A stretch of 33,156 nt of DNA, from the IMG/VR virus record IMGVR_UViG_3300037851_000800, positions 1 through 33,156 of that record; one strand, given 5' to 3'. This document shows positions 4,596 to 20,149 of the stretch, one piece after another. The stretch is from a virus (taxonomy: Duplodnaviria > Caudoviricetes). A model generated the notes under the pieces. The model saw nothing but the letters and a program-made list of their open reading frames with translations. It did not search any database and had not been told where the DNA came from. How positions within the stretch are numbered: position 1 is the first letter of the stretch; the number at the start of each line of letters is the position of its first letter. The translations under genes were made by a program, and so were the position numbers.

Positions 4596-5070
4596 TCATA
4601 CGCCGGCGCGGATTGAGGAAAAGTACCCCACGGCGCGGGTGCCCGGCGCGCTAACCCTGGCCGATGTGTTTGCCGGATGGGAAGCCGCCGGGCTAACACC
4701 GGTTGAGGTGAGCACAGAGGATTTGGCGCAACGCATTAATATTGAGTATAATGCGCTGACCACGCAGCTCAAATGGACAACGGACAATATGGACGGGGTG
4801 CAGGCATTGGGGATAATGGCCGATGCGTTTTTGAGTATGTTTTCCGAGTTTTTTAAGGCCAAACCCAGGCCCAAATTTAGCAGCGGCCAGGCGCGGGTAA
4901 TGGTTAATCTTGACGGCAATCAACTGGCGGTGGCGCTGGACCCGCTGCACGATCCCACTGTTGTCAAGGGCGTTTTGGGGGCGGCGCTGGCCGAGGTGAT
5001 CACCCGCAGCCGGTCGGATGATCCGGTGCGGGATTGGCTAAAAATGTGGAGTGTAGACATTAGCTCGTAG
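4576..5070 (+). CDS. Hypothetical protein, last gene of the late operon
   Basis: ATG 4576 with GGAG at 4562 preferred over 4504; converges on the integrase. Confidence 0.55.
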   Translation: MLLNNSDHTPARIEEKYPTARVPGALTLADVFAGWEAAGLTPVEVSTEDLAQRINIEYNALTTQLKWTTDNMDGVQALGIMADAFLSMFSEFFKAKPRPKFSSGQARVMVNLDGNQLAVALDPLHDPTVVKGVLGAALAEVITRSRSDDPVRDWLKMWSVDISS

Positions 5071-5093
5071 CCTGCTCCGAGCCAATGTCTACA
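5052..5093. other. Candidate attP site of the serine integrase
   Basis: 20-bp inverted arms TGTAGACATTAGCTCGTAGC / GCTCCGAGCCAATGTCTACA (18/20) around a central CT dinucleotide, at the integrase 3' end. Confidence 0.65.
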
Positions 5094-6595
5094 AACGATT
5101 TAACCCACTGTCGTGTCTGGATGAGGGTGAATTGATTGCCCGTTATTTCCAGGCGATCAAAAATACTGTGGATGATATTTCGCTGGTGATACAGGTCGGC
5201 GCTAGGAAGTTGGTCCAGGTAACTCAATATAACATTGATGTGTGTTTCAAGATCGGCCATCTCAATTGAGGTGGCCTGTTTTTTTTCCAGAGCGGTAATG
5301 GCGATTTGCAGGGGTTGGTTACGGCTGATAAATTGCTCTTTGGTGATCAGACCGCTGGTGTGCAGGTCTATCAACCGTTCTAATTCCTGCCGTCTGGCCT
5401 GGAGTTGGAGTTGGTTGTTGTTGGGGGCGGTCATTGTGGTCGCAAGTGCCCGGCGTGTATTGTTGACCAGTAGCTGGTAATAATCGCGCTGGTAGGCGAG
5501 TTGCAGTACCAGGCCAATGAGGTGCTGTTCCAATGGTTGGGCGGGGGTAAAACGTTGGGGGCAGGCAGGAGGTTTAGCATCCATATGGCGGTAGTAAGGC
5601 CGTTTTGTGGTGCCGCTGGACATCATTTGGCCGGTGAGTTTGCCGCCGCAATGGCCACAGTAGAGTATCCCGGAGAGTGGATATATCCGGGCGGGTTTAT
5701 TTTTGCGGCCGGGGGTATGATAATGGCTGCGACTGTCCAGCGCGGCGCCCACCCGGCGGCATAAATCCGGGTCCAGTATTGGCTCAAACTGACCGGGGAG
5801 CGGGGGCAGGGTACGGTCGGGGTGGTGGTTTTTGGTCAGGCGGGGTATTTGCCCGGCGTAGAGTTGCCAGCGGGCCAGGGTTGAGGCGACGCGGGTAAAT
5901 GTCCAGGGGGTAGGGGTAACGAGATCAACCTGCCAGCGATAAAAACTTGCCTCGTTGAGTGCCAGGGCGGTATCGCGGTAGCTGCTGCGCCCGGTGGCGT
6001 GGATTTCAAACAGGGCGACGAGCGTATCATAATAGCGCCGCTCTGCGCCGTTGAGAGTGTATGTTTTGACGGTGGGGATGAGATGTTTGGTGATCGGGTC
6101 GCGGTCGCAGCCAAACGGGGTTGGCCCCCAGTGGCGGCCGTTGTTGGCGCGCAGGTGCTGTACCGTGGCCGCCATCCTGTCACCGGCTTTGCGGCTCTCG
6201 GCCTCGGCAAAAGCCATTATCACGGTGGCCATCACCCGGCCGTCGGTGGTGGACAGGTTTATATCCTGGGTGGCGCTGATGAGGGTGAGGCCGCGCGGCT
6301 CCAGTTGGCTATCGTAAAAATGCAAAAATTCAGTGACATTGCGGTGGCTGCGATCAATGGACTCCACGATCACGCCGGTGGTGCCGGGCCGGTCCAAGTC
6401 ACCCAACAGGCGCAGCCAGTCGGGGCGGTTGGCCTCGCGGCGGCCGGAGATGTCTAAATCCTGATACCATTCCAGGGCGGGCAGGCCGTGCGCGGCGGCC
6501 CACTGCTCGATGGCGGCGCGCTGCCGGGCCGGGCTGGCGCTGGGGTTGTTTTCATCCTCCACGGATTTGCGGATGTAGGCGCGATAGAGGGGCAT
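5060..6595 (-). CDS. Large serine recombinase (phage integrase)
   Basis: N-terminal YIRKS catalytic motif, DxDISG, SIDRSHR; recombinase domain (PFGC); Zn ribbon LSGILYCGHCG; coiled-coil C-terminus. Confidence 0.95.
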   Translation of the reverse strand: MPLYRAYIRKSVEDENNPSASPARQRAAIEQWAAAHGLPALEWYQDLDISGRREANRPDWLRLLGDLDRPGTTGVIVESIDRSHRNVTEFLHFYDSQLEPRGLTLISATQDINLSTTDGRVMATVIMAFAEAESRKAGDRMAATVQHLRANNGRHWGPTPFGCDRDPITKHLIPTVKTYTLNGAERRYYDTLVALFEIHATGRSSYRDTALALNEASFYRWQVDLVTPTPWTFTRVASTLARWQLYAGQIPRLTKNHHPDRTLPPLPGQFEPILDPDLCRRVGAALDSRSHYHTPGRKNKPARIYPLSGILYCGHCGGKLTGQMMSSGTTKRPYYRHMDAKPPACPQRFTPAQPLEQHLIGLVLQLAYQRDYYQLLVNNTRRALATTMTAPNNNQLQLQARRQELERLIDLHTSGLITKEQFISRNQPLQIAITALEKKQATSIEMADLETHINVILSYLDQLPSADLYHQRNIIHSIFDRLEITGNQFTLIQTRQWVKSFVDIGSEQATS

Positions 6596-8841: not shown

Positions 8842-9087
8842 ATGAAAAAGTTTGGGCAAACAACCCTGGCAATAACCTTGACCGCGCGCCCGGCGGGGTG
8901 GCGCTTATGGCCGCCGCTGTGGGCGTTCAGGCTGTGGATTTTGCAGCGGCGTTGCCGTCGCGTAGCTCTTTTTCTGCGCGATAACGGGCCTGTTCTTCCC
9001 GAAAAAACAACTCGGCAATGCTCAGCAAGCGCTCCCGCTCCTGGGGAGAGAGGCGCTTGCCCAGATCGTACAACTGTTTCAGAGTAA
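8842..9087 (+). CDS. Putative SOS-induced small protein (antirepressor candidate) overlapping the repressor 3' end in antisense
   Basis: GGGAG RBS at 8831, ATG 8842, directly downstream of the LexA-box promoter; no recognisable domain. Confidence 0.4.
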   Translation: MKKFGQTTLAITLTARPAGWRLWPPLWAFRLWILQRRCRRVALFLRDNGPVLPEKTTRQCSASAPAPGERGACPDRTTVSE

Positions 9088-9325
9088 AATCCTCATCCGG
9101 GCCGGGCAGGGGCGGCAATAACCCGGCCTCGCGCATTACGATCTCCGGGGGAAGGTCCAGGGCGCTGGCTATTTTAGTGCAAAAATTGGTTCCAGGATTT
9201 TGTTGACCACTGATAACCATTGAGATATTTGAAGTGGTTAATCCTGATTGGCGGGATAATTCAGAGTTGCTCCAACCCCGTTTATTGAGTTCATCGTTCA
9301 ACCAGATGACAAATTTATTCTCCAT
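8927..9325 (-). CDS. cI-like XRE-family repressor without S24 peptidase domain
   Basis: WLNDELNKRGWSNSELSRQSGLTTSNISMVISGQQNPG HTH; divergent from Cro-like gene; ATG 9325 preferred over 9355. Confidence 0.85.
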   Translation of the reverse strand: MENKFVIWLNDELNKRGWSNSELSRQSGLTTSNISMVISGQQNPGTNFCTKIASALDLPPEIVMREAGLLPPLPGPDEDFTLKQLYDLGKRLSPQERERLLSIAELFFREEQARYRAEKELRDGNAAAKSTA

Positions 9326-9350
9326 AGTGAATATTTTAAGGTAAAAAGCC

Positions 9351-9446
9351 CTCATATCTATGATAATTTAACTCATCCTCTTGACAAATTACCACAAGGT
9401 GTGGTATATTTCTCATTGTAATGAGTTATTTCCTCATAGGAATGAA
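9351..9446. promoter_or_regulatory. Immunity region: four TCAT-N4-ATGA operators and rightward promoter
   Basis: CTCATATCTATGAT 9351, CTCATCCTCTTGAC 9372, CTCATTGTAATGAG 9412, CTCATAGGAATGAA 9433; TTGACA 9381 and TGgTATATT 9402-9410. Confidence 0.75.
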
Positions 9447-9448
9447 AA

Positions 9449-9736
9449 ATGAGCATCCCCTACGGACAAAAAATAAGAGCATTACGGGCCATCCGGGGTT
9501 TAACCCAGGTTGAGCTGGCCGCGCAGGCGGGGGTTGGCCGGGAAACGCTGGTACGGGTGGAGGCTACCCACGTAGCCAATAAAACCACCCGTCAAAAAAT
9601 AGAAGCCGCTTTTGGCCTGTCGTTTGACAGTCCGGCGGTGGAAATGGCTTTTTCTGTGCTGGCCACCGAGGCCGCCCGGCCCGATCTGGTGCGGCTGGCG
9701 CTGGCTATTTTGGAGCATCCCAATGGTCATTTCTAG
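9449..9736 (+). CDS. Cro-like XRE HTH regulator
   Basis: KIRALRAIRGLTQVELAAQAGVGRETLVRVE; divergent from the repressor. Confidence 0.85.
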   Translation: MSIPYGQKIRALRAIRGLTQVELAAQAGVGRETLVRVEATHVANKTTRQKIEAAFGLSFDSPAVEMAFSVLATEAARPDLVRLALAILEHPNGHF

Positions 9737-10540: not shown

Positions 10541-10810
10541 ATGGATTTGCCGGACGGGGCGCATATTATCAACGTGCCCGGCGAGAGTCGGCCAATTATG
10601 CACCGGGTGGTTTTTGTTATTGCCGGGCGGGGGTACATTACCGAGTTGTGCCGTCACTGTTTTGGCCGGGTGGCTATGGTAACTACCCGTTACGGCAAAC
10701 TGCAACCCCGCGACGCCGACGGCCAGGTGCATTTTGCCACCTGCCCGGTATTGCTGGCCCGGCGGCAACGGCGGCGGGCGCGAAAACCAAAACAGTTACG
10801 ATTACCATAA
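10541..10810 (+). CDS. Small Zn-finger-like phage protein
   Basis: CRHC...HFATCP ligand pattern; GGAGAG RBS before ATG 10541. Confidence 0.6.
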   Translation: MDLPDGAHIINVPGESRPIMHRVVFVIAGRGYITELCRHCFGRVAMVTTRYGKLQPRDADGQVHFATCPVLLARRQRRRARKPKQLRLP

Positions 10811-13146: not shown

Positions 13147-13366
13147 GTCATCCGGGGCGATTATAAATACTGGATGACCCGCGTGTGTGTCGCCCGATGC
13201 AAGACGCAAGCAGGGCTGGGTGGGGTAGGCTCACCCAGCCCATATTTAATCGGCAAACGAGAGGTATCCGATTAACAAATTAAAGCCCCGGTCAGTAGAT
13301 CGGTACCGGCCGGGGCAAGCTGCTGGAGACGCAGCAGCCGTTATGATTTTACATAAAATACGGCTG
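13147..13366 (+). ncRNA. Candidate structured RNA (six successive hairpins)
   Basis: Intergenic; see finding for stem coordinates. Confidence 0.35.
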
Positions 13367-13398
13367 GCTGACAAGTCGTATTTTTTATTTGGAGGCGA

Positions 13399-13605
13399 AT
13401 GATGGTGGTTGAAATGCTGGTTTTGATGGCGGCGTTACTGATCGGGCCAATCGCGCTCGTGGTAGGGGTGGTGTGGGTGCTGGCGTTACGCGCCGGGGCA
13501 AAGGAAACGCGGCTGGTGGCCGCGTGGCGGGAGTCGCTGGAGCAGGGGCCGCGAGTGGTGCTGGTGCGGCGGTCATCGTTTACGAGTTTGCGTGATGAGG
13601 ATTGA
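13399..13605 (+). CDS. Small single-pass membrane protein
   Basis: GGAGG RBS; long hydrophobic N-terminus. Confidence 0.6.
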   Translation: MMVVEMLVLMAALLIGPIALVVGVVWVLALRAGAKETRLVAAWRESLEQGPRVVLVRRSSFTSLRDED

Positions 13606-13607
13606 CT

Positions 13608-14486
13608 ATGAAAAAATTTAACGTGATGGAATTTATATCACAAAATTCTATCGTCATTGTGCCGCTGTTCCCTATGGCCGTGGTGGGAGTGGCCGCCTAT
13701 TATTTTGCCATCGGGGCCGGGCTGCATTGGGCGCTGGCGCTGGCGCTGGCCGGGGTGGCGGCCTTAGCCATTGAATTGGCCGGGATCAGTTCATTTCGGA
13801 CCCTCACCGGCGTGTATCAGAGTTTCAAGCAGCATCACCATGATGGTTTTGTGGTGGCCGAATTTGCGCTGCTGGTGGTTGGCGTGGCGGTGTACATTGT
13901 GGCCATTGTGCTGGCCTCGCTGGTACTGGAACGGCAATTTGCGGGATCGTGGCCGTTGGGGGCAATGGCCGGGCTGATGGCGGTGGCGGTGTATATTGTG
14001 CGGGCGGTAGGCGAATCGTACACGGTGATTGAGCAGGAAGTCGAACAGGATAAAGAGTTTGAACGGTTCCGGCGCGAACAGCTATTTGAACAGGAATTGA
14101 AAGACCGCGAACACGCCCGGCGAATGGAGAGCAAACAGGAAACTGTGCACGCCTATGAAACGCGCATCGATCTGGAACAGGCCAAAAAGGGCCAGTTGAA
14201 CAGGTCCCCAACGGCCTCGAACAGGGGAAAACAGGGATTGCGGCCACCGGCGGCAACCAGCCCGGCGTTCAAGAGCGCGTTTGAGGCGCAGCCGGAACGC
14301 AACCGCGCGAACAGAGAGCAACGAAAAGAACAGCTATTGAATGTTTTGTCCGAACAGCCGGAGATAGGCCAAAATGAAGCCGGACGAAGGGTCGGCATAG
14401 CGGCCTCAACCGCGTCCGACTATGTTCGGGAACTGACCGAGTCTGGACGGTTAGGCAAAAATGGCAGCGGCTGGAAAGTCAGATAA
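13608..14486 (+). CDS. Multi-pass membrane protein with coiled coil and C-terminal winged HTH
   Basis: Four hydrophobic segments, charged helix, then QNEAGRRVGIAASTASDYVRELTESG HTH. Confidence 0.7.
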   Translation: MKKFNVMEFISQNSIVIVPLFPMAVVGVAAYYFAIGAGLHWALALALAGVAALAIELAGISSFRTLTGVYQSFKQHHHDGFVVAEFALLVVGVAVYIVAIVLASLVLERQFAGSWPLGAMAGLMAVAVYIVRAVGESYTVIEQEVEQDKEFERFRREQLFEQELKDREHARRMESKQETVHAYETRIDLEQAKKGQLNRSPTASNRGKQGLRPPAATSPAFKSAFEAQPERNRANREQRKEQLLNVLSEQPEIGQNEAGRRVGIAASTASDYVRELTESGRLGKNGSGWKVR

Positions 14487-15174: not shown

Positions 15175-15248
15175 CCTGCGAACCTGTGACAACCTGCGAA
15201 ACCTGCGAAACCTGCGTAGGCGTAAAATCCGCAACAGGTTTGGCAGGT
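15175..15248. repeat. ACCTGCGAA short tandem repeats with inverted CAGGT copies
   Basis: acctgcgaacctgtgacaacctgcgaaacctgcgaaacctgcg followed by caggtttggcaggt. Confidence 0.65.
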
Positions 15249-15276
15249 GGCGAGTAGGTTAGGAAAGATTAGAAAA

Positions 15277-15819
15277 ATGAAATTGATAGATTGCGCCCGC
15301 CAGGCAATGGCCGAGATGGAATACACCCCGGCCACGACCCGCACTTACATCCGTTCCGGTTTGAGCGTGAGCGAGTGCGCGCGGCTGCGGATTAGGCAGT
15401 TGGATTTTGGGACAAATTTAGTTATACTAAACAACAGGACAACTGTTCTGCCGGATTTGGGCCGGGAGCAACTCCAGGCGCAGGCGGCGCTGGCGCGTGA
15501 TTGGCCCGGTAACGTGGAGGGTTATGTATTCCCGTCCAGCCGGATGCACGGCGGGCGCTGCTGGCACGTATCGCCATCCAGCCTGCAAAAGGCGCTGAAA
15601 CAGGCGGCTCCAGGAGACCGGCGGATCACACCGCGGGTATTGCGGCACTCGTTTGTGCTGCGGTTGCTGGAGGCAGGTTATGATGTTCGCACCGTGCAGG
15701 AGGTGTCCGGTTTTGCGGATGTGGAATCGGTGATGGTGTACCAGCGGATGCTCGACACGCGCGGCGTGGTCAGTCCGTTGGATGAGTTGACATATGCGGA
15801 AAAATCCGCAGATGAGTAG
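15277..15819 (+). CDS. intI: Degenerate, internally deleted integron integrase (probably catalytically inactive)
   Basis: IntI-like segments MKLID...TYI, SGLSVSECARLR, YVFPSSR, HVSPSSLQKALKQAA, LRHSF, LLEAGYDVRTVQE, GVVSPLD; 180 aa; catalytic R1, K, H and H/W positions altered. Confidence 0.8.
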   Translation: MKLIDCARQAMAEMEYTPATTRTYIRSGLSVSECARLRIRQLDFGTNLVILNNRTTVLPDLGREQLQAQAALARDWPGNVEGYVFPSSRMHGGRCWHVSPSSLQKALKQAAPGDRRITPRVLRHSFVLRLLEAGYDVRTVQEVSGFADVESVMVYQRMLDTRGVVSPLDELTYAEKSADE

Positions 15820-15825
15820 TTAGCT
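15795..15825 (+). other. attI-like junction at the integrase stop codon
   Basis: G/TTAGCT core at 15819 whose downstream 11 nt are the exact reverse complement of the end of cassette 1; TGCGGA-AAAA-TCCGCA palindrome just upstream. Confidence 0.65.
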
Positions 15826-15835
15826 GGACTAAGAG

Positions 15836-16507
15836 ATGTCACTTGATAGCATAATCATAACCGGCGATGCCCGGCAAATAGAACTAGCTCAATTCCCTAA
15901 TCGTTACGGTGTGATTGTCGCTGACCCCCCCTGGCCGTATCGTGTGGCGAAAGGACAAGGCACGGCAAAAGACCAGTACGAGCTAATGACTGATAAAGAG
16001 ATTTACGCCATGCCAGTGGGCCATCTTGCCAAGTCCGATAGTGTACTTTTGCTGTGGGGAACGTGGCCGAAACTACCAGAAGCATTAGCTACTATGCAAG
16101 CCTGGGGATTTGAGTATGTGACCGGCTTCCCCTGGATAAAGATGAACAAAAACGGGCATGGTGTTTATTACGGGGTTGGTTATTGGGTGCGCGGTTGTTC
16201 TGAGTTTGTTTTTATCGGAAAGCGGGGCGATGTGTCAGCCCCAAGAATGGATGGGTTTTTAGGGCTAATGTCCCCAAATTTTCAGCACAGCCGAAAGCCA
16301 AACAGCATCCACGAATTAGCCGAAGCATTACCAGGCCCTTATCTTGAATTGTTTGCTCGGCGCTCTATGCCCGGCTGGACAAGTTTTGGAAATGAAGTTG
16401 AGGACATTAAAACGGGGTTGGTGTTACGTCCAGCTAACAAGGGCATGAAGCCGACTTGCTACCAGTCTAAATTTCAACTCCCCCTTGCTGGCGAAGGGGA
16501 TTTATAA
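15836..16507 (+). CDS. Cassette 1: MT-A70-family N6-adenine methyltransferase
   Basis: ADPPW, LLLWGT, WGFEY, HSRKP and LELFAR motifs. Confidence 0.9.
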   Translation: MSLDSIIITGDARQIELAQFPNRYGVIVADPPWPYRVAKGQGTAKDQYELMTDKEIYAMPVGHLAKSDSVLLLWGTWPKLPEALATMQAWGFEYVTGFPWIKMNKNGHGVYYGVGYWVRGCSEFVFIGKRGDVSAPRMDGFLGLMSPNFQHSRKPNSIHELAEALPGPYLELFARRSMPGWTSFGNEVEDIKTGLVLRPANKGMKPTCYQSKFQLPLAGEGDL

Positions 16508-16557
16508 TCAATCAATCGGGGCCAGCCCGCAAGCGGCTTATGCCCCACCAGTTAGGG
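16432..16557 (+). other. attC1 (126 bp)
   Basis: AGCTAAC...GGGCAT(G)AAGCCG(A)CTTGC / GCAAGCGGCTTATGCCC...GTTAGGG. Confidence 0.9.
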
Positions 16558-16575
16558 GCTAAAGCGGATTGGCTT

Positions 16576-17568
16576 ATGGCAAAGGTAAGAATAACTCATA
16601 TTGACGGCAAACTCCCTAACCTTGCGCTTATGAAATTGGCCCATTGGCACAAGGCGCAAGGTGATGAGGTGTTTTTTGCCAGAAATATCGAAAGAACGAT
16701 GTTTGAACCGGATTATGATATAGTTTACGGTTCGACTATTTTTACCTTTAGCCAGGCCAACACAAGCCGCTTTATGGTAAATTTCCCTAACGCCATTGTC
16801 GGCGGAACCGGAACCGGAAAAATGAACACAGTTGAGGAAATCACCGGAAAACACGAGCATTATGATTACTCAATTTACTCTGAGTATCAATGGTCTATCG
16901 GCTTTACTCAGCGAGGATGCCGCTTAAATTGCCCGTTTTGTGTGGTCCCGAAAAAGGAAGGCCGCCCCCGATCCGTCAATACAATTTGGGATATTTACCG
17001 GCCAGGGACTCCAAAAAACATTTGTCTGTTAGATAATGATTTTTTCGGACAGCCTAAAGAGCAATGGTTAGAGCGGATCAGTGAAATAAAAAGTGGTGGG
17101 TTCAAGGTTGCATTTAATCAGGGTATCAATATCAGGCTGATTACTGATGAGGCCGCTTACTGGTTGGCTCAAATTCCGTATTATGATGACCAATTTAAAA
17201 AGCGCAGGCTTTACACGGCCTGGGACAACCTAAAGGATGAAAAGATTTTCTTTGATGGCGTTGACCGTCTGGAAAAAGCCGGAGTGCCACCGTATCACCT
17301 GATGGTTTATATGCTCATCGGCTTTGACCCGTCCGAAACCTGGGAGCGCATTTTTTACCGTTTCAATCGGATGGTTGAGCGTGGTATCCGGCCTTATCCG
17401 ATGGTCTATAATGATAATCGAGATTTGCGCCGCTTCCAGCGTTGGGTAGTGCGTAGGTATTACGAGGTCATAAGTTGGTCTGATTTTACGCAACCTAACA
17501 AGGGCATGAAGCCGAATTGCTACCCTTCCAATTTTCAACTACCCCTTGCTGGCGGAGGGGACTTTTAA
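16576..17568 (+). CDS. Cassette 2: radical SAM protein, phage type
   Basis: TQRGCRLNCPFC CxxxCxxC motif, LLDNDF; N-terminal IDGKLPNLALMKL; ATG 16576 lies after attC1. Confidence 0.85.
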   Translation: MAKVRITHIDGKLPNLALMKLAHWHKAQGDEVFFARNIERTMFEPDYDIVYGSTIFTFSQANTSRFMVNFPNAIVGGTGTGKMNTVEEITGKHEHYDYSIYSEYQWSIGFTQRGCRLNCPFCVVPKKEGRPRSVNTIWDIYRPGTPKNICLLDNDFFGQPKEQWLERISEIKSGGFKVAFNQGINIRLITDEAAYWLAQIPYYDDQFKKRRLYTAWDNLKDEKIFFDGVDRLEKAGVPPYHLMVYMLIGFDPSETWERIFYRFNRMVERGIRPYPMVYNDNRDLRRFQRWVVRRYYEVISWSDFTQPNKGMKPNCYPSNFQLPLAGGGDF

Positions 17569-17618
17569 TCAATCAACCGGGGCCGGCCCGCAATCGGCTT
17601 ATGCCCCATCTGTTAGAG
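17493..17618 (+). other. attC2 (126 bp)
   Basis: ACCTAAC...GGGCAT(G)AAGCCG(A)ATTGC / GCAATCGGCTTATGCCC...GTTAGAG; close copy of attC1. Confidence 0.9.
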
Positions 17619-17625
17619 GGACAAA

Positions 17626-17859
17626 ATGAGCAAAATTATTAAAACTCGGTCACAAGAAATTACATTATCAAAAACTTGTGCTGGTGTTAGTCTTAATATC
17701 AAAAGAAAAGACGGTCGGCATCAATCTGTGCATATTTTCGACGAAGCTATACCTGAAATTGTAGATGAATTGAATCACATGATGGTCAAAAAGTCCGCCC
17801 AACAAGCGGTTGCAGGGGACGCCAAGAGCGAGGTCGTTAATCAAAAAACCGGCGCGTAA
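17626..17859 (+). CDS. Cassette 3: small hypothetical protein
   Basis: ATG 7 nt after the attC2 R' box; stop inside attC3. Confidence 0.7.
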   Translation: MSKIIKTRSQEITLSKTCAGVSLNIKRKDGRHQSVHIFDEAIPEIVDELNHMMVKKSAQQAVAGDAKSEVVNQKTGA

Positions 17860-17916
17860 GGTAGTTGGTTTTATTCTGCGGTTCTAAATCGCGCCCCTGA
17901 ACCGCAGGCATTAGGC
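17797..17916 (+). other. attC3 (120 bp), R' box ATTAGGC instead of GTT
   Basis: GCCCAAC...GCGGTT(G)CAGGGG(A)CGC / GCGCCCCTGAACCGC...ATTAGGC. Confidence 0.85.
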
Positions 17917-17938
17917 GGACCCCGAAGGAGAAATAATC

Positions 17939-18187
17939 ATGCAGGAATATGTTATCGCAATGAAGAGCGGTCATTCGTTCCGTGTGCAAATAAAAGACTT
18001 TTTATCATTTATATCGGATTTACAAACTGCTATCAATCCGCAGGCCATAAACAACTTTTATGCTCAGGGTGGAGTTATGTTCGATGTTGCCGATGTTTCT
18101 GCAATCTATCCACTGTCCGCCCAACAAGCCAATGGTGCGGACGCTGAAAGTAAGGCTCTATTAACCGGGGAAAAGTCTTTAGGCTAA
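17939..18187 (+). CDS. Cassette 4: small hypothetical protein
   Basis: AAGGAG RBS; stop inside attC4. Confidence 0.75.
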   Translation: MQEYVIAMKSGHSFRVQIKDFLSFISDLQTAINPQAINNFYAQGGVMFDVADVSAIYPLSAQQANGADAESKALLTGEKSLG

Positions 18188-18225
18188 AATACATTCACGC
18201 GCCGCTCATTGGCGGGGCGTTAGCA
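18119..18225 (+). other. attC4 (107 bp)
   Basis: GCCCAAC...GCCAATG(G)TGCGG(A)CGC / GCGCCGCTCATTGGC...GTTAGCA. Confidence 0.88.
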
Positions 18226-18237
18226 GGATAATCGCAA

Positions 18238-18621
18238 ATGAAACAATCGTTTGAAGTAATATATACATCTAACGCAGAGGAACTAATAAAACAACTATTT
18301 CCTGAATTGATTGAGCGTCAATCGTATCGTTTTAAATTCGTCCCGTCTGGTGATCAATGGTTTTTGCCTGTCTATGAATTTGAGGGATACGCAAAAGATT
18401 TTGATTTGCAAAACAAGGATGATGTATCCGTAAATGCAAACTTTGTTGTACTTAAGGATACATTCGTTGATTACACCGATTATAGATTTTATGCAAAGCT
18501 ATTGCGTTTTTTATGGAGATTCACTTGGTTGCATCGGCTTGTTGATATAGTCTCAAAGTGGCACAATCCTGCTAACAAGCATTTTCACCGGACGGCACAA
18601 CCAAGCGTTTTATCGGAGTAG
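18238..18621 (+). CDS. Cassette 5: hypothetical protein
   Basis: AGGA RBS; AT-rich; stop inside attC5. Confidence 0.7.
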   Translation: MKQSFEVIYTSNAEELIKQLFPELIERQSYRFKFVPSGDQWFLPVYEFEGYAKDFDLQNKDDVSVNANFVVLKDTFVDYTDYRFYAKLLRFLWRFTWLHRLVDIVSKWHNPANKHFHRTAQPSVLSE

Positions 18622-18688
18622 GTTTATTATTTGCGGTAGGCATTTTACCATAGGCCGCGTGGCCGCCGGTGAAATGTCACCGTTAGGT
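18570..18688 (+). other. attC5 (119 bp)
   Basis: TGCTAAC...CATTT(T)CACCGG(A)CGGC / GCCGCCGGTGAAATG...GTTAGGT. Confidence 0.88.
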
Positions 18689-18701
18689 TGCCTGAGCAAA
18701 G

Positions 18702-19328
18702 ATGAGTTTAAGACAGCGGATTTCTTTAATTGAAAAACCAACCGAATGGCTAAACGAGATGGTCACACTATATCACTATATGCACCGGTCAATCCACCAA
18801 AAATCTTGCCCGTTTGGTTGGGCTGTGTCGTTTGATGGTCAACTCGTTCAGCCGGACGGCAAACCAAGCGGTTTTATTGTATTCGCCAGTATCCACTTCA
18901 CCCGCTTGCATAATGAATTTGGTTATTCTGGTCTGCCTACAAAATGGCAGGTATTGAGCCTGGCCAGGCTTTGGCTTCATGATGACTTGCCGCGCAATTC
19001 TGAAACGTGTGTTATCGGTAAGGCTATGAAATTAGTACAAAAACGTTGGCTTGAGGTTCATCCGCCGCGTTTTTTGAAACAGCCATATCACATAGTAAAA
19101 ATTATTTCTTACGCTGATACTAGGTACCACGATGGTACAATTTACAGAGCTGCAAATTTCCGCGAAAGCGGGAGAACTGTCAGCCAGAAACGGCACAAAA
19201 ACAGCCGTGGGCCAGGTATGGGCGAAGCGGAATTGATTAGATTTATCTATGATCTTGATGAACCCAAATGGGTTTATGAACCGTTGCAACCGAGGCTTTT
19301 TGAGGAATTTGATTTCACGGCAGCCTAA
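18702..19328 (+). CDS. Cassette 6: Mom-like (GNAT-fold) DNA-modification protein
   Basis: YHYMH, LARLWLHDDLPRNSET and IISYAD-x3-HDGTIYRAANF motifs of Mom-related proteins; TAA stop lies within R'' of attC6. Confidence 0.75.
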   Translation: MSLRQRISLIEKPTEWLNEMVTLYHYMHRSIHQKSCPFGWAVSFDGQLVQPDGKPSGFIVFASIHFTRLHNEFGYSGLPTKWQVLSLARLWLHDDLPRNSETCVIGKAMKLVQKRWLEVHPPRFLKQPYHIVKIISYADTRYHDGTIYRAANFRESGRTVSQKRHKNSRGPGMGEAELIRFIYDLDEPKWVYEPLQPRLFEEFDFTAA

Positions 19329-19448
19329 CAAGCATTTCCAGCCGAATTACTACCGCTGCGGTTAACGAGCCTAACACCGCTGGCGATGGTGGCTCTTAAT
19401 CAAACTAAATTTGCTGGCCCGTAATCGGCTAAAATGCGGGCGTTGGGC
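19323..19448 (+). other. attC6 (126 bp)
   Basis: GCCTAAC...GCATTT(C)CAGCCG(A)ATTAC / GTAATCGGCTAAAATGC...GTTGGGC. Confidence 0.88.
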
Positions 19449-19560
19449 TGCTTTAATATACTCCCACAAAATGTTCAAATTTTTACATTCCATGTATTCC
19501 AACTGTTCTATAGTTATGATATAATAGTATGTAATAGAATCTTTTTTATCATTGATTTTT

Positions 19561-19588
19561 TTGTCAAAAATTGTCAAGGTGTTATAAT
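19561..19588 (+). promoter_or_regulatory. Internal promoter of cassette 7
   Basis: TTGTCA-16-TATAAT with TG extension in an AT-rich leader. Confidence 0.6.
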
Positions 19589-19625
19589 CTCAACTCCCAA
19601 TCTTTTAAAAATAGGAGATGATACA

Positions 19626-19844
19626 ATGGGTGGAGAAATCAAAGAGAGATTCACTGATTTTTTATACTCAAGACCTTCGTTTCTTGAGGGGGTCGCTCGT
19701 GTCGTTGATTTTGCAAATGTTTTGCAGGAATACAACGCATCATCTACACCTGAAATTGCAGATGAAAGAGCGACACGCGCTGATTGGGGTGCTGTAGGTA
19801 GTGATATGTATAAAACACTTAGGAGTATAAAATATGAACTGTGA
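19626..19844 (+). CDS. Cassette 7 gene A: small conserved-looking hypothetical protein (72 aa)
   Basis: AGGAG RBS at 19613; PSFLEGVARVVD...EYN...ADW-x-AVG-x-D pattern. Confidence 0.7.
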   Translation: MGGEIKERFTDFLYSRPSFLEGVARVVDFANVLQEYNASSTPEIADERATRADWGAVGSDMYKTLRSIKYEL

Positions 19845-20037
19845 TAGATGCGGTAAAGAGGTTCACGAAGATAAAGACGATTGGGTTTATTGTTTATATT
19901 GCGGGCTGAATTTATGCCTAGATTGTTGTGGGAAAGTCAACAATCTAGGTGCGTGCGAAAAGTGTGCCGCCCAACTAGCCAATGGAGCGGACGCTGAAAC
20001 AACGGCTCGGTTAGCTGAAGATAAACCGTTAAACTAA
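19834..20037 (+). CDS. Cassette 7 gene B: small Zn-finger protein
   Basis: AGGAG RBS; four CxxC pairs; stop inside attC7. Confidence 0.65.
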   Translation: MNCDRCGKEVHEDKDDWVYCLYCGLNLCLDCCGKVNNLGACEKCAAQLANGADAETTARLAEDKPLN

Positions 20038-20075
20038 AATTCATTCGCGCGCCGCTCATTGGCGCGGCGGTGTGA
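19969..20075 (+). other. attC7 (107 bp), terminal, R' box GGTGTGA
   Basis: GCCCAAC...GCCAATG(G)AGCGG(A)CGC / GCGCCGCTCATTGGC; close copy of attC4. Confidence 0.85.
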
Positions 20076-20120
20076 GGTAGGTAAAAAGGGCGGTCGGCCT
20101 CGCAAAAACCCGCAATTGAG

Positions 20121-20149
20121 TTGACATTTTTGTTATTTTGAACTACAAT
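20121..20149 (+). promoter_or_regulatory. Late-operon promoter
   Basis: TTGACA-17-TACAAT. Confidence 0.75.

Follow-up and report, generated by a model that had tools for sequence, protein, structure and literature searches.

An integron-type attC array beside an integrase-derived gene, predicted to be catalytically dead, in a likely temperate phage

The viral record IMGVR_UViG_3300037851_000800 (Caudoviricetes) is a linear metagenomic contig of 33,156 bp with a CheckV completeness of 79%, and the window analysed here is that complete record. Positions 15277-20075 hold a gene derived from an integron integrase (IntI), a likely attI recombination site at the end of this gene and seven gene cassettes with seven attC sites. 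The reading adopted here, with moderate confidence, is that this is an integron-type array in a likely temperate phage, and that the cassettes were likely inserted by an active IntI acting in trans.

The sites are attC1 (16432-16557, 126 bp), attC2 (17493-17618, 126 bp), attC3 (17797-17916, 120 bp), attC4 (18119-18225, 107 bp), attC5 (18570-18688, 119 bp), attC6 (19323-19448, 126 bp) and, as the last one, attC7 (19969-20075, 107 bp), all on the plus strand. attC1 is 88% identical to attC2, and attC4 is 81% identical to attC7. All seven have an R'' box ending in AAC and a paired L''/L' stem with two extra bases on the left arm, the second always being A, just as a preliminary description of this DNA had stated. 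That description also gave every site an R' box; it reads GTT in five of the seven but starts with ATT in attC3 and with GGT in attC7, so that attC7 is likely a poor substrate.

The right spacers of these sites are 7-8 nt, and an initial scanner set to right spacers of 4-6 nt found none of the seven. A strict scanner finds five sites, with 0.02 per dinucleotide shuffle of the region, and a relaxed scanner finds all seven, with nothing on the minus strand and 0-1 sites in each shuffled 33 kb; both were tuned on the seven sites of the window. A covariance model, the kind of check that the preliminary description had proposed, was built from 30 attC sites of phage and bacterial loci other than the window. 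The model scores all seven sites at identical coordinates, with 14.3-35.0 bits (lowest in attC2) and E-values from 0.069 to 6.5e-7, plus one chance match of 22 nt, and the modelled stem covaries among the 30 foreign sites. These were chosen by the same scanner, and the test is thus independent in sequence but not in selection. The z-scores for folding of whole sites are modest (-1.3 to -3.0), with the top strand folding better than the bottom strand in three of the seven, and no Rfam family matches the sites. On the evidence of motifs, stem and model, the seven sites are confirmed as real attC sites.

The ends of cassettes 1-7 are complementary at 11, 6, 8, 9, 11, 10 and 9 of 11 positions, and the true pairing is equalled or beaten in 8 of 5040 permutations. 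The complementarity described earlier for cassettes 1, 5, 6 and 7 is upheld, with 9 of 11 in the last, but cassette 2, which was not mentioned, is no better than background. The array has a GC content of 44.5% compared with 57.9% in the backbone, in agreement with the AT-richness already observed. With seven clustered sites within 3.7 kb, the array has more than the two required for a CALIN (clustered attC sites without an integron integrase; Cury et al. 2016, at least 2 sites). A CALIN has no integrase nearby; here a functional IntI is absent, yet an IntI-derived gene abuts the array.

The likely attI site is found at 15791-15825 on the plus strand. It consists of an inverted repeat (15791-15800 and 15805-15814), a putative L box at 15807-15813 and a G/TT crossover at 15819/15820, where the G at 15819 is the final base of the stop codon of the integrase-derived gene and the first cassette begins. 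The attI hairpin beats 99.7% of base shuffles (p 0.003). Base shuffles give an inverted repeat upstream of G/TT at p<=0.05 in 13 of 17 such junctions, including the window, while the loci L016, L047, L049 and L051 are above this threshold; the repeat ends a few bases before the G, L042 excepted. The geometry in the window is that of intact phage integrons. L016, a 1.5 kb contig encoding a full-length relative of the window protein, has the same G/TT overlapping the stop codon, followed by a ribosome-binding site and an open reading frame (ORF). L016 and the window have a 13-nt stretch upstream of G/TT in common but in different reading frames, so that it is the DNA itself that is conserved, and 7 of the 21 related proteins presented below end in a peptide matching this stretch. 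The contig of a second relative, L017, ends ahead of the attI position. In previous work attI has been described as being without a palindrome (PMC2095811).

The integrase-derived gene (15277-15819) lies on the plus strand like the cassettes and encodes 180 amino acids. It matches TIGR02249 with 78.9 bits against a cut-off of 265, and the best match in PDB is 2a3v. At the positions of R146, K171, H277, R280, H303 and Y312 in IntI1 (numbering from PMC2095811) the protein has S, a gap, R, R, F and Y, respectively, so that two of six catalytic residues are kept. All six are present in each of 74 intact viral IntIs (the best 80 loci minus seven that are partial, frameshifted or over-long, plus the one from Virus Rctr41k). 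The I2 span is 12 residues compared with 35 in intact IntIs, and deletion of I2 abolishes IntI activity (PMC7790495). Judged by these residues the protein is catalytically dead, and the phage would not be able to shuffle the array itself; no second intI was found in the record. The proposal in the preliminary description that the phage has domesticated an integron as a swappable locus is therefore retained for a phage-resident cassette locus, but not for a self-working one, the integrase gene being both dead and internally deleted.

The nearest relatives are 16 proteins of 256-286 amino acids with 43-68% identity to the window protein, and profile searches added five. Among these 21 proteins R280 is always present, H303 is kept in 9 and Y312 in 7, while R146, K171 and H277 are kept in none, and the lysine loop and I2 are reduced in all 21 relatives and in the window. 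The pairwise identity is 35-79% with a median of 44%. In a FastTree analysis the 21 rows, window included, are monophyletic with support 1.0 and a long stem; gapped columns with indels and five of the six catalytic columns were dropped (K171 being a gap) and P0048 was left out. Because the family was assembled by similarity to the window protein, the shared losses count as one ancestral event. Twenty members are near full-length with open frames, and 52 alignment columns are kept in at least 18 of 20 members, among them the NQA motif of the core-binding (CB) domain, R280, SPxD and family-specific G, N and C residues. For the three members with DNA, the non-synonymous and synonymous divergence (dN/dS) is 0.43/1.12 and 0.40/1.82 in two pairs, with the third pair saturated. 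The dead family is under purifying selection and the losses are not due to chance decay alone. The predicted structure of member P0002 has a pLDDT of 88.9 and 2a3v as best match (E 5.5e-18).

Searches with the family alignment found no member in viral contigs and none in GTDB genomes, where all 24 loci obtained from 185,579 prokaryote genomes stayed at or below 48% identity to the query and lacked the score of the family. Two other shortened IntI-like proteins with reduced insertions, P0166 and P0259, are 272-286 amino acids long; P0166 falls outside the dead family in the tree, so parallel losses may exist.

The window copy differs from the family by an in-frame loss of family residues 27-126, so that 100 residues are missing from its DNA-binding domain, and it is likely in decay. 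A second assembly has the same deleted protein apart from one changed residue. The deletion junction, at Arg and Ser codons (15349-15359), contains GTT at 15353-15355, which could be a 3-nt microhomology or a secondary crossover of the IntI type.

In integron recombination, IntI recombines the folded bottom strand of attC with a double-stranded attI; only two of the four monomers cut, and there is binding of the extra-helical bases in cis as well as in trans (PMC2727003, PMC4792948). For the phage array, an active IntI from the host or from another phage would be supplied in trans and recombine a cassette circle, through the folded bottom strand of its attC, with the G/TT at 15819, which would place the most recently gained gene at the head of the rightward operon. 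The loss of catalysis is ancient, but the ends of cassette 1 are perfect (11 of 11) and lie at G/TT, so the insertion of this cassette appears to have followed the loss and to have been made by an outside IntI.

Several points weigh against this account. Strictness of IntIs towards their own attI has been reported (PMC2095811), and action in trans would thus need a helper or a look-alike site. The inverted repeat in L016 is not significant (0.78 of shuffles), and the tree gives no resolved sister group for the dead family. The DNA context is available for 2 of the 21 relatives, L016 and L017, on contigs of 1.5-1.8 kb, with attI visible in one. The phage contig L042 has a 31% homologue of the gene upstream of the window locus, an attI-like junction, sites of the attC1/2/6 type and a radical S-adenosylmethionine (SAM) gene, and there is no intI in its record (42% complete), which may mean that the dead protein can be dispensed with. 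The searches turned up no phage closely related to that of the window, and hence no reshuffling of the window array was seen. The Atlas matches that hint at Chloroflexota as host score 0.79, below the lead level of the tool (0.9).

A helper might be provided by the dead family itself. The full-length protein seems to have kept its DNA-binding domain and C-terminal docking motif and to have lost catalysis together with the parts that read the extra bases of attC. Such a protein could fit on the attI L box in an attC x attI tetramer, a seat without need for cutting or base-flipping, and would then be a non-cutting helper that lets a foreign IntI use this attI. The helper role of the full-length protein is the least certain step and is proposed with low confidence; a role as a guard would fit the same anatomy nearly as well. 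A more far-reaching version, which we put forward tentatively, is that the phage lineage has made its integrase a non-catalytic adaptor that binds attI in its own gene end and recruits the host IntI, overriding attI specificity. Since the window copy lacks 100 DNA-binding residues and is likely decaying, its array is probably close to frozen, and what a host enzyme could still do to it would be mainly attC x attC excision.

The guard might be a regulator that sits on the inverted repeat and attI or that poisons the tetramers of the host IntI, while an IntI in trans still brings the cassettes. This would limit the loss of cassettes or tune the read-through into the array. Such a role is in line with DNA-binding and docking motifs being kept without catalysis, and with the integrase-like gene of L016 and L017 abutting or overlapping the stop of the gene before it, which makes its expression together with the operon likely; the anti-phage cassettes reported for host integrons (bioRxiv 2024.07.02.601686) could also favour an inhibitor. 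On the other hand, the fresh-looking cassette at the window attI and the cassette start in L016 suggest that insertion is not blocked, and no paper on a dominant-negative IntI was found in the open-access literature. The guard, along with its effect on loss or read-through, is considered a rather doubtful candidate. An ordinary attC cluster beside an intI pseudogene, that is a captured or stranded piece whose integrase-like protein has no present role here or in the family, is still less probable. The 100 residues missing from the window copy point in this direction, as do the different internal deletion in P0048, the free drift of H303 and Y312, the altered R' boxes of attC3 and attC7 and the mismatched ends of cassette 2, and pseudogenes have been reported near 15 of 279 CALINs (PMC4889954). 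However, the 20 near full-length frames have stayed open (median identity 44%), their dN is well under dS and the family has gained invariant residues of its own, and none of the 24 loci in the prokaryote genomes has the score of the family or exceeds 48% identity to the query. The pseudogene explanation therefore probably holds for the window copy but not for the family.

A self-sufficient active integron carried by the phage, which is the literal reading of the preliminary description, would be consistent with Y312 and R280 in the window copy and with similar layouts in other phages that have intact IntI and vary at G/TT. It is made highly improbable by the loss of R146, K171, H277 and H303 and of the I2 helix, with most of the DNA-binding domain also gone and no second intI at 79% completeness. 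Least probable of all is a chimera in which the assembly joined a host integron to a phage contig. The record is an incomplete linear metagenomic contig, which leaves room for such an error, but the layout recurs in more than 10 unrelated phage contigs, the same deleted protein is present in the second assembly, the cargo has its matches in phage families, and L042 has the upstream gene as well as a cassette in common with the window.

The cassette genes are all on the plus strand. The gene in cassette 1 (15836-16507) encodes an MT-A70-type DNA methyltransferase (PF05063, E 2e-28; phrog_359; PADLOC MTase_II) and the gene in cassette 2 (16576-17568, start codon set by eye) a radical SAM protein (phrog_9298, E 8e-55); both continue 76 nt into their attC sites. 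The latter has 83% nucleotide identity to a gene within the attC cluster of L042. Cassette 6 carries a gene for a Mom-family DNA-modification protein (18702-19328; PF25680, E 2.5e-16; phrog_1384; 307 homologues), the sole cassette gene in the window that stops inside R''. The remaining five ORFs matched no family above cut-off: those of cassettes 3 (17626-17859, 77 amino acids), 4 (17939-18187, 82 amino acids) and 5 (18238-18621, 127 amino acids), which extend into attC3, attC4 and attC5, and the two of cassette 7, one of 72 amino acids (19626-19844) and one Cys-rich of 67 amino acids (19834-20037) that extends into attC7. Cassette 7 (content at 19561-20037) also has a promoter-like site at 19561-19588. 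A defence-system search of the cassette proteins gave nothing beyond the type II methyltransferase. The cargo is of phage type, a supported conclusion that agrees with the earlier description, as the methyltransferase, the radical SAM protein and the Mom-like protein all have PHROG matches. The closest three viral Mom homologues (58-70%) include two ordinary phage genes and one cassette with nearly identical ends. In addition, the viral contigs L133, L155 and L160 (3-4 sites each) and L173 (2 sites) have attC-like sites near Mom-like genes, with an IntI in L155. Following the argument in PMC9892861, the cassette methyltransferase could protect the phage against host restriction.

Six of the seven cassette ORFs in the window run 52-76 nt into their own attC. 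The same is found in phage arrays at 44 of 53 sites with an assignable ORF compared with 4 of 25 in chromosomal controls, which comprise 41 sites (16 without an ATG-started ORF nearby) from Acidobacteriota and Pseudomonadaceae, 17 of them from one locus and none from the likely host phylum. The right-arm TAA is the stop codon in 21 of the 44 attC-reading phage ORFs, and CxxC motifs inside attC sites number 16 in the frame of the ORF, compared with 1 and 2 in the two others. The attC sites of the window encode no zinc ribbon. attC1 and attC2 give two unrelated enzymes nearly identical tails with a QLPL motif, which we take to resemble clamp-binding motifs. The ratio of synonymous to non-synonymous codon differences is 3:6 between attC1 and attC2 and 2:9 between attC4 and attC7; with differences between sister sites mostly non-synonymous, constraint at the protein level is not evident for these tails within the window.

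The backbone has terminase, portal, scaffold, capsid, tail and tape-measure genes (Pfam and PHROG profile matches). A profile match places a serine integrase on the minus strand at 5060-6595; the repressor-like gene at 8927-9355, also on that strand, faces a Cro-like gene (9449-9736, plus strand). Judging from the integrase, the repressor/Cro pair and the structural genes, this is likely a temperate tailed phage. A replication gene with a DnaA_N domain is located upstream of the array and terminase genes downstream, and among the picked ORFs every one from 9449 onward is on the plus strand. The array is thus in the rightward direction between replication and packaging genes, the position given in the preliminary description. 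The orientation suggests that it may be transcribed by read-through from the lytic phage operon. No sigma-70-like match that might act as the cassette promoter Pc was found on the plus strand between 13400 and the first cassette, and promoter matches overall do not exceed shuffles. A sigma-70-like promoter candidate (11/12, a consensus match) is situated after the array and before the packaging genes at 20121-20149 on the plus strand. An identical stretch of about 11 nt with a -35-like hexamer is seen by eye at 15785-15795, upstream of attI, and at 20119-20129, downstream of attC7, and the second copy alone has a matching -10.

Other features were observed upstream of the locus. The interval from the replication genes to the pair of genes that precedes the integrase-like gene contains three terminator-like hairpins (13213-13384). 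Short repeats with inverted copies are present at 15175-15270, between the upstream gene and the integrase-like gene, and comparable repeats precede the array region of L042. A gene for a multi-pass membrane protein is found close upstream of the integrase gene in the window (13602-14486), L016 (3-539), L017 (298-981) and L002 (6711-7463). Three of these four proteins end with a zinc-finger-like or helix-turn-helix tail, and they have no common Pfam family.

The host is probably a member of Chloroflexota. In addition to the Atlas matches, the hints are one named Mom homologue among 120 listed matches and three Anaerolineae/Chloroflexota names among 120 listed IntI relatives, where a planctomycete and a cyanobacterium also occur. 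The Anaerolineae/Chloroflexota IntIs in that listing are intact.

At least 538 IntI relatives were found in viral contigs. For the best 80 of these loci, the strict scanner detects attC downstream on the same strand in 10, upstream on the opposite strand in 18 and not at all in 52. Co-oriented arrays, as seen with the relaxed scanner and the model, are present in L001, L002 (the same contig as L069), L047-L051, L057, L064, L078, L079, L088 and Virus Rctr41k. The 13 co-oriented IntIs in the tree all belong to one clade of 15 with support 0.85. By eye, a terminase gene precedes the integrase in L047-L049, and in L002 and L079 replication genes do. The intact IntI, attI and cassettes of L047-L049 stand directly behind the gene for the large terminase subunit, unlike the slot in the window. 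Many intact IntI genes in the viral contigs L052-L126 lie inside phage operons, with a stop that often overlaps the next start. Phage IntI seems far more common than the four cases in PMC9892861. In Virus Rctr41k (L127, GenBank KX853513, 4680-10101) a gene annotated as xerD encodes an intact IntI, and behind it stand six attC sites scored by the model, with methyltransferase genes; this is apparently an unannotated complete phage integron in a public record.

The preliminary description had suggested that cassettes be compared between relatives. Other phages do differ: up to G/TT, L001 and L002 are identical at 10,605 of 10,608 bases, and beyond it their cassettes are different, which is natural variation at the crossover. 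The explanation that L001 is L002 plus one inserted cassette was rejected; the second cassette of L001 shares only its first 10 nt with the first of L002, so the arrays differ from G/TT on. A search with the upstream gene of the window locus recovered the contig of L042 only, and 13 relatives of the window terminase in viral contigs (41-64% identity, several short or without the upstream side) have neither attC nor intI in the DNA available. The DNA pattern of the attC1/2 class was found in five loci, with attC sites only in L042, and that of the attC4/7 class gave no matches.

Integrons and CALINs in phages are already in print: 3 complete integrons, 1 In0 and 17 CALINs were reported from 10,705 phage genomes, and of six phage attC sites tested, five were IntI substrates (Qi et al. 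2023, PMC9892861). The 17 CALIN phages of that survey may include cases similar to ours. The array alone is a clear new example of this published phenomenon, and the testable part is the role of the dead integrase family. The published phage integrons look like captured host pieces, while this locus and the related contigs point to operon integrons owned by phages and filled with phage genes, in which DNA-modifying enzymes could guard against restriction. With a family that is dead but conserved, one can ask directly how attI specificity is set and whether the non-cutting subunits can be a different protein. If the adaptor proposal is true, the phage runs its own cassette economy of DNA-modifying and accessory genes, with attC hairpins supplying C-terminal tails, and its integron recombinase would consist of two proteins, a first natural case of this kind. 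Coding attC sites are also of interest for cassette genesis, for which no reliable model exists according to PMC4792948. No paper on a conserved inactive IntI family was found in the open-access literature; subscription papers are mostly outside that search.

The locus resembles the phages in PMC9892861 in having attC clusters, methyltransferase cassettes and sites expected to be substrates of bacterial IntI. The complete integrons described in that paper are pieces of a Vibrio chromosomal integron, class 1 mosaics or a cryptic Shewanella prophage, whereas the locus in the window is in the rightward operon of the phage itself, with a co-oriented integrase-derived gene of a conserved dead family, an attI over the stop codon and phage-type cargo. 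Integrons with an inverted integrase in Treponema are similar in that intI is transcribed toward attI in the direction of the cassettes (PMC3607928, PMC4889954). As described there, they are chromosomal with a complete integrase, in contrast to a phage locus whose protein is dead and whose crossover falls on the final base of the stop codon. IntI1 and VchIntIA (TIGR02249; 2a3v) are the best match in profile, sequence and fold, with the CB-domain residues, R280 and SPxD kept, but the window protein is below the family cut-off, and R146, K171 with its loop, H277 and I2 are lost in 21 of 21 relatives as well as in the window. Finally, the attC sites are like the engineered coding attC of Nivina et al. 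(2020, PMC7439510) in being both recombination site and translated sequence. The coding attC in that study were designed, while those in the window are natural and occur at most of its sites, as they do across phage arrays.

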